From Nanobdellati archaeon (GTDB lineage: Archaea > Nanobdellota > Nanobdellia > Woesearchaeales > GCA-2686295), in assembly GCA_014384375.1 (NCBI GenBank), contig JACNFY010000019.1, forward strand, positions 36,262 through 100,261: a stretch of DNA of 64,000 nt, written 5' to 3'. A program made the translations under genes and the position numbers. This document shows, one piece after another, positions 13,383 through 47,513 of this stretch (position 1 is the first letter of the stretch; every line of letters starts with the position of its first letter). The notes under the pieces are model-generated. The model was not told where the DNA came from, did not search any database, and saw only the letters and a program-made list of their open reading frames with translations.

Positions 13383-13391
13383 TTTAAATAG

Positions 13392-13464
13392 AGCAGGAGG
13401 GGGGATTCGAACCCCCGATCTAGTGCTCTGCAGGCACTCGCCTTAGCCGCTTGGCCACCCCTGC
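13392..13464 (-). tRNA. tRNA-Cys (GCA)
   Basis: The reverse complement folds as a cloverleaf: acceptor GCAGGGG/CTCCTGC, anticodon stem AGTGC/GCACT with loop CTGCAGA, T arm GGGGG-TTCGAAT-CCCCC, discriminator T. It is 73 nt with no encoded CCA. Confidence 0.9.
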
Positions 13465-13513: not shown

Positions 13514-13669
13514 TGGACCTGGAGGGATTCGAACCCCCGATCTACAGCTTAGAAGGCTGTCGCCTTATTTGTCCAAGGTTTTTCCTTTTTTCCCGTGGGG
13601 CTAAGCTTTAGCGCATGCCGCACTTCGGGATTAAGGAACGAAACCCTTGCCAGACTAGGCTACAGGTCC
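13514..13669 (-). tRNA. tRNA-Arg (TCT) interrupted by an 82-nt intervening sequence in the D-arm/anticodon-stem junction
   Basis: Exon 1 (13669-13645) reads GGACCTG TA GCCT AGTCTGGCA AGG. Exon 2 (13562-13514) reads CG ACAGC CTTCTAA GCTGT AGATC GGGGG TTCGAAT CCCTC CAGGTCC A. Joined, they give a perfect 74-nt cloverleaf. The junction is ambiguous within a duplicated AAGG. Confidence 0.75.
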
Positions 13670-44527: not shown

Positions 44528-45739
44528 TTATAAGTCGTCGCCTGTCACTATTGTAAGTCTGTTTGACTTGGCTTTTGTTTCCATCGCTACTAGGAACTTG
44601 ATGTATGCTCTCTCTGCTGTACTCACTAATTCTTTGTCGATAACACCATCCAGTACAATTGCATATATTCCTGTTCTCAAACTCTTAATTGTACTCTGCA
44701 GTTCTGAAACTGGGACTTTTCCAAGTATGTTTAGGTCATCGTCAAGTACATATGCGCCTCTTGTTCCTATTAAGTCTTCAAGCATCTCACTGAAGTTTTG
44801 TTTCTCGTCCTCCTTCAATCTTTTCTTAGTATAAGTTTTTTCTTCTTTTTTAGGGGCTTCTTTTTCTTCTACTTTCTTCTCAGGAGTTTTTTCTTCTTTT
44901 TTAGGGGCTCTTGATTCCATCTTTGCTTGTTCTGATGCTATCTTTCCTCTCAAAGCTTTATGGATTTCTTTCTTAGTTAGCTCCTCAACTTCTTTCCCAT
45001 CAGGAGCTTTCGTCACAAAATCAATCTCTGCTACTGTTAGAAGTTCCTTGATGATGAGATCTCCTCCTCTGTCTCCGTCAACAAAGGCTGTGACTGTTTT
45101 CTTCTTGCTCAAATCAATAATCGTTTCAGGAACGCTTGTTCCATTCAAAGCGATAACATTTTTGAAACCATGCTTTAGCAAGTTCAGGACATCTGCTCTT
45201 CCCTCTACTGCTATTATGTCGTCGCTTTCATCAATTGCAGGTCCTGCTGGAAGTCTCTCCTTTCCGAACTCTTGAATCTCCATAACCCTTACAGAGTAAG
45301 CTACTTCATCAGCCAGTTCTTGGCTGTCAGGCAGCACTCCTTCCATCAGGTTCTTCAAGAGCTCTTTTGCCCTGTCAACCACTTGATGTCTCTTTGATAT
45401 TCTTATATCTTCAATCTTTTCTACTTTTGTCTTTGCATTGCAAGGACCTATTCTCTGGATTATCTCAAGAGAAGCTCCTACAATAGCTGTTTCTGCTTTA
45501 TCAAGAGAGGATGGTATTATTATTTCACCATTTGTTTTTCCTCCTTTTGTCTCTATATTCACTTCGATTCTTCCTATCCTTCCTGATCTCTGGAGCTCTC
45601 TAAGCTCCAAATCAGACCCTAATAGTCCTTCTGTTTGTCCAAATATTGCTCCTATAACATCAGGTTTATCTACAATACCCTCTATCTGTATTGTTGCGTG
45701 AATGATGTATTTTGCTGATACTTGTGCAATTTTTGCCAT
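44528..45739 (-). CDS. dnaG: Archaeal DnaG (Toprim-domain primase-like protein)
   Basis: The N-terminus is AKYIIHATIQIEGIVDKPDVIGAIFGQTEGLLG. The Toprim motifs are VEGRADVLNL and VDGDRGGDLI. A K/E-rich insert is present. Confidence 0.85.
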   Translation of the reverse strand: MAKIAQVSAKYIIHATIQIEGIVDKPDVIGAIFGQTEGLLGSDLELRELQRSGRIGRIEVNIETKGGKTNGEIIIPSSLDKAETAIVGASLEIIQRIGPCNAKTKVEKIEDIRISKRHQVVDRAKELLKNLMEGVLPDSQELADEVAYSVRVMEIQEFGKERLPAGPAIDESDDIIAVEGRADVLNLLKHGFKNVIALNGTSVPETIIDLSKKKTVTAFVDGDRGGDLIIKELLTVAEIDFVTKAPDGKEVEELTKKEIHKALRGKIASEQAKMESRAPKKEEKTPEKKVEEKEAPKKEEKTYTKKRLKEDEKQNFSEMLEDLIGTRGAYVLDDDLNILGKVPVSELQSTIKSLRTGIYAIVLDGVIDKELVSTAERAYIKFLVAMETKAKSNRLTIVTGDDL

Positions 45740-45974
45740 TTTTATTCCTCCAAAAGTTTGTCTTTTGGGGTTCCAAAAACATTTAGTTTTTGATAACCTC
45801 CTTTTGTCAGCAAATCACAATTATAGAAGTACTATTCCAATCTTTCTAAGGAACGTGATGATTTGTGATTAATACTTCTTCTAGAACAAGCATTTCTTAA
45901 ATGAATGATCATGATTGATAAATAATGAATGATGAGCTTGTTCTTGAGTGATTTGATGAACATTATTAATATTA

Positions 45975-46140
45975 TATGTGTTGCCCGATGCACTAACCCC
46001 CAGTTTCATAGCCTGACGATCGTCGTGCTCGAATGGGTACTCTCTGTGTCGGGCTGAATCGTGTGAGAGTGTCTCAATCTCATCGCTGAGCTTATGCTCT
46101 GCTCGAAAAGGGACTCATTCACACCCAAACTGGAAATTAT
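45975..46140. ncRNA. Candidate structured non-coding RNA of unknown class (GC-rich intergenic island)
   Basis: By hand count, 45981-46130 is about 52% G+C while the adjacent 45841-45960 is about 29%. No ORF of 60 aa or more is present. Several complementary segments and two similar units about 74 nt apart occur. Strand and class are undetermined. Confidence 0.35.
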
Positions 46141-46163
46141 AGGCGATTTATAAACGTATCGTT

Positions 46164-47513
46164 TTATGTTAGAACACAACCGCTTAGTTTTGCAAGGTTA
46201 TCTAGTGTCTGTTCTCCAGTATGTTTTTGGCCGTTAACCTCCCATGTTGGGTATCCTGATATCCTTTCATTTCGGCATATTTCTGTTTGTGCTCTCGGAT
46301 TTCCCTCTATTGAGCACTCGACATATGTTATGTGCTCCCAAGCATCTCCGAACATCCTCTTCTGAGCTGCACAGTGGCTACACCAGTAAGCACCAAACAT
46401 CTTAGCTCCTTTTTCACTGAGACACTTTGCAAAGGTTACTATTGAGTCCTCCTCTAAAGGCTCTTCTGTAGTTTCTTCCTCTTCTATGCATATCTCTGTT
46501 TCTGGTGTTTCAAAGCAGTTGATTATCTCTGCGTTGCTTCTTAACTCTTCAATATATACCCTGAATTTTTCCTTCTGTTTTTCGAATAGTAAGTTCGTTT
46601 TCAGTTGCCCTTCCACTTCCTCTAATGAAAATGTTCTCTCAGGAGTTTTTTCAAGTGTTTGTATTAAATGATAGCCAAACTGAGTTTTCACTACACTTGC
46701 TTCTCCGACCTCGTTGTTAAACGCTGTATCCTTGTATTCTTGGACAAAGTTAGAGTCTCTTGTGAATGCAGGATACTCTCCACAAGTATCCTTGCTTCCA
46801 GGATCTTCTGAGTATTCTTCTACCAGTTCGCAGAACTTCTCTTTGTCTTCTTCAAATGCTGTTTTCACCTCATCCATTATTGCTAGGGCTTCTTCATCTG
46901 TTCTGCTCTCAGTTGAGATTAGGATGTGTCTTGCCCTAACGCTTTCAGGAACTGTGAATAGTTCAGGATTTAACTCGTAGTAATTGAATATTTCCTCATC
47001 GCTAACTTCCAAATCATAGAATAAAGTTTCATTTAGAAATAAAAAAACTCTTAGTTGGTCCTTGAATTCTTCGAGTGTGAATCCTTGTGTAGCTACGTTT
47101 TCACTTAGCTGCTCAATCGTAATGTTGTTCTCTGCAAGTATCCTGTTTATCTCGTTATCAACCTCTGTACCTGCTTTCCTAGCTTCAGCTTGTAATAGCT
47201 TCTTGTCAATCAACTGTGATAATACAGTGTTTTCGTCAAGCACTTGCTGTAACTGTGGTGGTAACCTGCTAGCTTCTTTTAACAGCTCTTCTTCATATAT
47301 TAATTCGCCGTTAACAACACCAACGACTTTTCCTTTGGTTTCTGCTTCGATTCCTGAATATTTTGCTACAATTATAATAACAACTATGGCTATTATTCCT
47401 ATTATTGGGTAGATGTTTTTCTTAGGTTGTTTCTTTGTAACTCTCTTAGTTTTTTTAGAACTTTTACGTGTGGATGAGGTTCTTCCTCTTTTCTTTTTAG
47501 CCAATGAAATCAC
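46164..47513 (-). CDS. Membrane-anchored parvulin-type PPIase fused to a VKOR-associated thioredoxin-like domain
   Basis: The order is an N-terminal TM anchor, a SurA-N-like helical region, a PpiC domain (RARHILI...FGYHLIQ) and a C-terminal domain. That C-terminal GAKMFGAYWCSHCAAQKRMFG...ITYVECS...ISGYPTWEVNGQKHTGEQ closely resembles the Trx-like domain fused to bacterial VKOR. Confidence 0.7.
   Translation of the reverse strand: MISLAKKKRGRTSSTRKSSKKTKRVTKKQPKKNIYPIIGIIAIVVIIIVAKYSGIEAETKGKVVGVVNGELIYEEELLKEASRLPPQLQQVLDENTVLSQLIDKKLLQAEARKAGTEVDNEINRILAENNITIEQLSENVATQGFTLEEFKDQLRVFLFLNETLFYDLEVSDEEIFNYYELNPELFTVPESVRARHILISTESRTDEEALAIMDEVKTAFEEDKEKFCELVEEYSEDPGSKDTCGEYPAFTRDSNFVQEYKDTAFNNEVGEASVVKTQFGYHLIQTLEKTPERTFSLEEVEGQLKTNLLFEKQKEKFRVYIEELRSNAEIINCFETPETEICIEEEETTEEPLEEDSIVTFAKCLSEKGAKMFGAYWCSHCAAQKRMFGDAWEHITYVECSIEGNPRAQTEICRNERISGYPTWEVNGQKHTGEQTLDNLAKLSGCVLT

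Follow-up and report, generated by a model that had tools for sequence, protein, structure and literature searches.

A GC-rich island in an intergenic region of a woesearchaeal (DPANN) genome very probably encodes a double-hairpin box H/ACA guide small RNA (sRNA) of about 150 nucleotides (nt), which would be read from the minus strand under its own TATA promoter and would have helix 69 and the A-loop in 23S ribosomal RNA (rRNA) as targets. The island was analyzed within a window of 64,000 nt, by which we mean the whole stretch of DNA under study (Nanobdellati archaeon, assembly GCA_014384375.1, contig JACNFY010000019.1, positions 36,262 to 100,261 of the forward strand); coordinates given without a contig refer to this window. 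With such a guide, two key uridines of the large rRNA would most likely be converted to pseudouridine. We infer from the sequence that the RNA would be transcribed in the minus direction from this promoter, with the ends given below, and would assemble into a ribonucleoprotein (RNP) in which L7Ae binds the kink-turn in each upper stem and Cbf5-Nop10 each lower stem together with the 3' box; the strands of the internal loops would pair with the 23S rRNA on both sides of an unpaired uridine, which Cbf5 would isomerise to pseudouridine. This kind of RNA is known already, and it is the member present among these tiny archaea that the databases miss. The first-pass annotation of the same DNA had proposed a structured RNA of a novel kind: its structured, conserved and non-coding character and its lack of an Rfam match stand, whereas the claim of a novel kind does not, each of the two units described there being most probably one hairpin of a box H/ACA guide sRNA in the minus-strand sense.

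The alignment on which this reading is based (A3) was made with MAFFT from 35 homologues and was not fitted to any structure, the two-hairpin structure being written out by hand. Under this structure 86.3% of the cells are paired, compared with 30–44% when the partners are slid by 1–3 columns, and the check by homologue collection and covariation suggested at first pass came out positive, with double-sided changes in 27 of the 38 pairs; none of 500 shuffles reaches any of these measures. The consensus fold obtained with RNAalifold agrees with these stems. Both hairpins are built in the same order, from a lower stem P1, a large internal loop (the pocket), a second stem P2, the motif 5'-(N)GA-GC...GC-NRU-GA-3' and a small apical stem-loop, and each corresponds to one of the two units of approximately 74 nt that had been taken for related modules. 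Hairpin A, the 5' module (46061–46124, minus strand, as for all features of the RNA), has a P1 that joins 46119–46124 with 46061–46066, pocket strands PS1 (46113–46118) and PS2 (46067–46072), a P2 of 46105–46111 with 46073–46079 in which five of the seven pairs show double changes, and an apical stem-loop at 46088–46099. In its P1 all six pairs change on both sides and 98.6% of the cells are paired, with variants such as GUGUGA/UCACAC, GCACAA/UUGUGC and UAUACA/UUGUAU. Hairpin B, the 3' module (45983–46054), has a near-invariant P1 (46049–46054 with 45983–45988), which is the pair GCCCGA/TCGGGC noticed earlier, pocket strands PS1 (46038–46048) and PS2 (45989–45998), a P2 of 46031–46037 with 45999–46005 that shows double changes in four of six pairs and contains many U-G pairs, and an apical stem-loop at 46015–46024. 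The two small hairpins reported at 46015–46024 and 46088–46099 are these apical stem-loops. A second register for P2 of hairpin B ('register 2', ACCC/GGGU) was rejected, being unsupported outside the genus because column 141 is A in most sequences.

Between P2 and the apical stem-loop both hairpins carry a predicted kink-turn that is canonical in its parts, with a GC/GC C-stem, a bulge of three nucleotides and tandem sheared G.A pairs. In kink-turn A (46080–46104) the 5' strand reads C-G-A-G-C, with its GA at 46103–46104, and the 3' strand (46080–46086) consists of GC, the bulge GAU and GA; among the 35 sequences the 5' strand G is kept in 29 and the A in 34, the 3' strand G in 35 and the A in 33, the bulge follows N-R-U and the C-stem GC/GC. 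Kink-turn B (46006–46030) has the same C-G-A-G-C strand, with its GA at 46029–46030, opposite GC, the bulge UAU and GA (46006–46012) (5' strand A 35/35 and G 31/35; 3' strand G and A both 35/35; bulge N-A-U). Read as its reverse complement, the repeated word TGCTCGAA noted at first pass gives the kink-turn strand UUCGAGCA.

The archaeal H/ACA motif is defined by P1, pocket and P2, by a kink-turn with its distal G:A pair 9–10 nt from the base of P2, by an ANA box, and by the rule that this box follows the modified position n at n+15 ± 1 (PMC7075261); a box spacing of 14–15 nt has been given for archaea (PMC2377435). Counted by hand on A3, the span between the distal G:A and the base of P2 is 9–10 nt for hairpin A and 9 nt for hairpin B, which matches the 9–10 nt of PMC7075261. 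The hinge box after hairpin A (46055–46057) reads UCA here but ACA in most relatives (ACA in 20 of the 35 sequences, UCA in 10 including this one, CCA in 4) and follows the first PS2 nucleotide at 15 nt in 34 of 35. It abuts the stem in most relatives because P1 of hairpin A extends there by 2–4 further pairs. The 3' ACA box (45979–45981) begins one nucleotide after P1 of hairpin B, is of the form R-ACA in 29 of 35 sequences and lies 14 nt after the U of the PS2 element 'UAGU' in 34 of 35. Both spacings, 14 and 15 nt, fit the 15 ± 1 rule (PMC7075261) as well as the archaeal 14–15 nt (PMC2377435). Besides the P1-pocket-P2 hairpins, the kink-turns and the ANA box spacing, the element displays bipartite complementarity to rRNA, which we counted as such when it comprised 8 base pairs (bp) or more to a stable RNA, in two parts flanking an unpaired UN.

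Since, at the start of contig C2, the assembly of this genome retains only the 3' end of the 23S rRNA, the targets were taken from the rRNA operons of two genomes of the same genus. With boundaries left free, the pocket strands of all 12 guides were compared with every uridine of 16S and 23S rRNA. Hairpin A scores best at GGGUGU-UC-ACCCAUY in helix 92, that is, the A-loop (mean score 11.9, next site 8.9), and hairpin B at GUAACUA-UA-ACUCUCU in helix 69, at U1917 (mean 10.1, next 8.7); with boundaries fixed by the H/ACA geometry, none of 300 column-permuted guide sets reaches the target score of hairpin A or that of hairpin B. The numbers attached here to individual nucleotides of helix 69 and the A-loop are those that we take to be the E. 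coli ones. In the literature the helix 69 positions are 1915 and 1917 and the A-loop covers 2552–2556 (PMC2584109, PMC12123411). In the main register predicted for hairpin B, PS1 (A)GAGAGU would pair with A1919-CUCUC(U) (1919–1925) and PS2 UAGU with A1913-C-U-A1916, which would leave U1917-A1918 unpaired, at n+15. A second register, in which the adjacent GUUA pairs with U1911-AAC1914 and U1915-A-U1917-A stays unpaired, could also give pseudouridine 1915; such a 'UVUN' arrangement lets stem-loop SL2 of Haloferax volcanii sR-h45 make both helix 69 pseudouridines (PMC7075261). In hairpin A, PS2 ACACUC is predicted to pair with GGGUGU, which ends at U2554, and PS1 AAUG(G/A)GU with A2557-CCCAUU, leaving U2555-C2556 unpaired; were the A-U2554 pair open, the 5'-most unpaired uridine would be U2554.

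Helix 69 and helix 92 were recovered from further genomes in order to follow guide and target together. Helix 69 gives no such test, because it is invariant across the order. Helix 92 varies at few stem positions, and in the 23 genomes with both sequences 11–13 of the 13 positions of the hairpin A guide pair with the organism's own helix 92. Two target changes are compensated, C2560U in G010 by G to A in the guide and C2560G in G107 by G to C; moreover, C/U and A/G variation of the guide opposite G and U preserves wobble pairing. Two other candidate targets were discarded. For a match of 12–15 bp between PS2 of hairpin B and a variable hairpin near position 1300 of the 16S rRNA of G001, that 16S hairpin differs in G004 without compensation and the pairing would in addition consume the P2 stem, and no complementarity was found between hairpin A and the region of E. 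coli 2586, which is the target of SL1 of sR-h45. As a separate observation on the rRNA itself, the 23S fragment of this genome (contig C2:1-170) carries about 45 extra nt (GAAGTATTTGTTGCTGGCAACAAATGCCCAGTAACTTGTTACTGTAT) in the hairpin immediately 5' of helix 92; this stretch is absent from the rRNAs of G001 and G004, of the same genus, and could be a small expansion segment or an insertion beside the A-loop. The remainder of the rRNA operon is missing from the assembly.

A covariance model of the RNA (R1), built from 12 homologues (alignment A1), matches 45975–46125 on the minus strand, 151 nt, with 166.9 bits (G000:C18:82236-82386). From the positions of promoter and boxes, the 5' end of the RNA would lie at about 46125 and its 3' end at about 45976, a few nucleotides past the ACA box. 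Upstream, the conserved CGATAYGTTTATAAA is found about 25 nt 5' of the first helix in the minus-strand sense, reverse-oriented loci having been turned, and contains the archaeal TATA box TTTATAAA (46147–46154), whose centre is about 25 nt from the putative RNA 5' end. A TATA-like motif occurs 18–36 nt upstream in 34 of the 35 homologues, compared with 7.6% at positions drawn at random from these loci, and a strict TATA 8-mer in 25 of 35, against a background of 1.6%. G-U and U-G pairs are frequent in the minus sense (pair 96–139 is UG in 23 sequences and pair 28–43 GU in 15). The conserved TATA spacing, together with these G-U pairs, which would become A-C on the plus strand, places the RNA on the minus strand.

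By BLAST, a stretch of 201 nt covering the element is single copy in this genome, and homologues with 73–82% identity are found within its genus, elsewhere in its family and in two further families. Of 151 genomes sampled from across Woesearchaeales, 134 contain a single copy detected by model R1 (108 of the 116 of high quality), and the model also matches 23 genomes that belong to other orders of this class. When named genome records were scanned with a pattern, more than 120 contigs were recovered, labelled mostly Candidatus Woesearchaeota, Nanoarchaeota or Nanoarchaeia. Hairpin B is the universal core. In some families it alone is conserved, hairpin A being missing or different, and the predicted A-loop guide is therefore an accessory module. 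The apical loop of hairpin B is expanded by 25–60 nt in three genomes (L007:1399-1608 in G008, L008:1536-1740 in G004, L055:1501-1679 in G017), where the inserts form one or two extra hairpins, one with a conserved loop (A/U)UUCGCUA(C). Many of the metagenome-assembled genome records that bear the RNA (loci L115–L191) are labelled 'uncultured Methanosarcinales archaeon' (binchicken assemblies) and one 'Alphaproteobacteria bacterium'; these organism names look wrong or like placeholders.

The closest known relative is the H/ACA sRNA of Nanoarchaeum equitans, which was detected by RNA-seq, is 159 nt long in the text and is listed at genome positions 339411–339574 (Randau 2012, Genome Biol 13:R63, PMC3491384). 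It is abundant in RNA-seq and has two hairpins with two identical kink-turn bulges, an ACA hinge, a box A promoter and a T-stretch terminator (PMC3491384). Thus it comes from the same class of archaea as the present RNA and shares with it the two kink-turn hairpins, the ACA-type hinge, an own box A/TATA promoter and a length of about 150–160 nt. An alignment of hairpin B with stem 2 of the N. equitans RNA (sequence from Additional file 2 of PMC3491384) shows identical hinge ACA, GCCCG, CACGAGAGU, GUUAGUG, CGGGC and AACA; that is, the pocket strands CACGAGAGU and GUUAGUG of the 3' hairpin, its GCCCG/CGGGC lower stem and the tail GGGCAACA are the same. Judged by this alignment, hairpin B is orthologous to stem 2, and we therefore regard the RNA as orthologous, within Woesearchaeales, to an H/ACA RNA that is known but un-catalogued, neither of the two having an Rfam family. 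On the other hand, the 5' hairpin of the N. equitans RNA cannot be aligned and has different pockets, and its gene lies between tyrS and a hypothetical gene instead of beside dnaG.

For the A-loop, the site of comparison is yeast Psi2923, which we take to be equivalent to E. coli U2554. The canonical-rule uridine of hairpin A, U2555, is one position 3' of it. Psi2923, which lies in the loop that hairpin A matches, is guided by the 3' hairpin of yeast snR10; snR10 is a eukaryotic snoRNA with H and ACA boxes, without a kink-turn and unrelated in sequence (PMC2879522). For helix 69, sR-h45 of H. volcanii (PMC7075261, PMC5029457) is likewise a double-hairpin archaeal H/ACA RNA whose 3' hairpin serves the helix 69 uridines (E. 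coli 1915/1917), and the second register described above, with UAUA unpaired, resembles the 'UVUN' requirement of its SL2. It differs in that its 5' hairpin guides Psi2605 (E. coli 2586 region, between H90 and H93) and not the A-loop, in a spacer of 56 nt between the hairpins compared with 6 nt here, and in showing no detectable sequence similarity. Thermococcales and Archaeoglobus likewise have guides for the helix 69 loop that possess a kink-turn and carry ACA at 14–15 nt, namely Pab40/Pf7 motif III and Afu-4 (HgcG, RF00064; PMC2377435, PMC2584109), which the 3' hairpin described here would parallel in function; these are three-motif RNAs, and the present element has no Rfam match even at E = 10. 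In vitro, Pab40/Pf7 motif III and Afu-4 make only one of the two helix 69 pseudouridines (PMC2584109).

The island itself was observed much as first described. The intergenic gap of 424 nt (45740–46163) is bordered by two minus-strand open reading frames (ORFs), the Toprim/DnaG ORF of dnaG (44528–45739) and a SurA_N+PpiC ORF (46164–47513), and G+C rises to 0.52 at 46000–46099 from 0.30–0.31 at 45750–45999. A 17-nt direct repeat (TGCTCGAATGGGTACTC, 46026–46042, and TGCTCGAAAAGGGACTC, 46100–46116; 82% identical) has a start-to-start distance of exactly 74 nt, as expected from the tandem unit proposed, and all four complementary segments were found where they had been placed. The island, the repeat and the helices are thereby confirmed, and folds of both the plus and the minus strand are better than shuffled controls (z = −2.8 and −2.9). 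The description as ORF-free is correct as regards coding, which is excluded because the homologues differ by 1-nt indels, but not literally, as mechanical ORFs of 42–57 aa overlap the region. The comparison with Rfam gave no match for the island at the gathering score nor up to E = 10. No tRNA, whole or split, was found in the element by ARAGORN, and it is neither SRP RNA nor RNase P RNA, both of which were located elsewhere in the genome, with no family match in the element. Elsewhere in the window, positions 13522–13575 (minus strand), beside tRNA-Cys (13391–13464), give a partial Rfam tRNA match (34.3 bits, model positions 8–63) that is not called by ARAGORN and may be an atypical, intron-containing or fragmentary tRNA.

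Downstream of the element, the DnaG N-terminus lies on the same strand at a distance of 109–325 nt in 33 of 38 loci (L002–L079) from many families, and the upstream neighbour varies (RIO kinase, KH protein, PpiC and others). In 24 of the 38 loci, across families, the spacer that separates the sRNA from dnaG contains an inverted repeat AGAACAAG...CTTGTTCT, with a loop of 41–117 nt in all but one locus; here it is AGAACAAGC...GCTTGTTCT (45936–45944 and 45883–45891, minus sense), with a G-poor, UCAU-rich loop, and the region 45883–45944 has no Rfam match. Counted by hand, its mismatches are mostly G-U in the minus sense (8, compared with 2 that fit the plus strand), and one compensatory change was seen (L077). 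This hairpin might serve in processing or termination, or it might belong to a dnaG leader, and the sRNA may be co-transcribed with dnaG.

This linkage is the ground for an explanation in which the element is a cis-acting, regulatory 5' leader of the dnaG mRNA and not a trans-acting guide: dnaG is the constant neighbour whereas the upstream gene is variable, and some loci leave little space for a separate dnaG promoter. We nevertheless consider it improbable, since all the hallmarks of H/ACA RNAs together with the co-varying rRNA complementarity favour a guide RNA, in N. equitans the orthologue, encoded between other genes, accumulates as a separate RNA of about 160 nt, and co-transcription with dnaG followed by processing would agree with a guide too. 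Little credence is likewise given to an RNA that binds L7Ae through its two kink-turns and, by pairing with 23S rRNA, acts in assembly as a chaperone or scaffold but brings about no pseudouridylation, for instance because Gar1 is missing and the RNP inactive. The failure to detect Gar1 speaks for it, as does the yeast snR10 5' hairpin, which has a role in processing separate from modification (PMC2879522), but Cbf5 with its PUA domain and Nop10 are retained, the rigid box spacing of 14/15 nt and kink-turn spacing of 9–10 nt are constraints of catalytic geometry, and archaeal Cbf5-Nop10-L7Ae is active in vitro without Gar1, which 'may facilitate turnover' (literature summarised in PMC2377435).

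The fold implied by the first-pass annotation, a plus-strand RNA with a pseudoknot or a three-way junction closed by CCAGTTT/AAACTGG, appears extremely unlikely. The pair (46000–46006 with 46127–46133) is an exact match of 7 nt, and the minimum free energy fold of the plus strand uses it as closing helix (z = −2.79); however, one arm lies upstream of the putative RNA 5' end, outside the RNA, the pairing is not kept in relatives, many conserved G-U pairs would turn into A-C, and the conserved TATA spacing suits minus-strand transcription. A pseudoknot is therefore unsupported, and the crossing pair is a chance match. We find it hardly credible that the element should be the remnant of a decayed gene, a small ORF or a box C/D sRNA. 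The overlapping ORFs and weak plus-strand box C/D matches at 45861–45989 might suggest so, but the indels and the compensatory changes in the helices argue against it, and the matches are sub-threshold (12–23 bits, compared with gathering scores of 37–61) and almost wholly outside the element, which has no D box (CUGA) at proper spacing, a box C/D sRNA being recognised by its C (RUGAUGA) and D (CUGA) boxes and guides of about 12 nt.

As for the proteins that a guide RNA would need, Cbf5 (C1:31299-32243, with DKCLD, TruB_N and PUA domains) and Nop10 (C17:10671-10811) are confirmed by Pfam in this genome, and L7Ae (C32:501-770) was found by tblastn with an approximate query and then confirmed by Pfam. 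Several observations nevertheless count against the box H/ACA guide or parts of it. A search for Gar1 (PF04410) that detected control archaea gave nothing in any of 11 genomes of the lineage, and nothing in this genome at E values up to 10; the PF04410 model could overlook a divergent Gar1, and completeness of the genome is about 95%. Either an H/ACA RNP without Gar1 or a very divergent Gar1 is possible in this genome and 10 relatives. The hinge box UCA of this genome departs from ANA. In PS1 of its hairpin A guide an A-C mismatch stands uncompensated, the same PS1 A variant is carried by G003 and G004, and G140 and G156 each have one mismatch between the hairpin A guide and helix 92. Hairpin A is missing in G014 (L110, G014:C82) and has divergent pockets in G012 (L111, G012:C26), and hairpin B pairs with the invariant helix 69 over just 4 + 6–7 bp. 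To our knowledge, an A-loop pseudouridine is established in no archaeon. Finally, the targets published for the N. equitans RNA from RNAsnoop differ from ours, being 16S U234 as well as 23S U614 and 16S U796 (PMC3491384).

Taking the guide RNA, the protein set and the dnaG linkage together, we put forward as a tentative and rather doubtful proposal that Woesearchaeales possess a minimal H/ACA system without Gar1 and with one two-hairpin guide, that its 5' hairpin would install the A-loop pseudouridine (U2555/U2554), and that the guide would be co-transcribed with the dnaG mRNA and processed away from it, a conserved hairpin with a long loop (AGAACAAG...CUUGUUCU) separating the two. What is understood of the H/ACA RNP mechanism is unchanged by the present analysis. 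It raises the questions whether Gar1 is dispensable in reduced archaea and why the guide gene is locked to dnaG. An archaeal A-loop pseudouridine is predicted, and if this reading is true, a site known as an H/ACA target only in eukaryotes (snR10) would also be one in archaea. The likely target of the sole H/ACA RNA known from Nanoarchaeum is reassigned to helix 69, the most conserved pseudouridylation site of the ribosome. The above structural and target analysis provides an annotation, a covariance model and target assignments for what would be a housekeeping RNA, near-ubiquitous in Woesearchaeales and absent from Rfam and from genome annotations.

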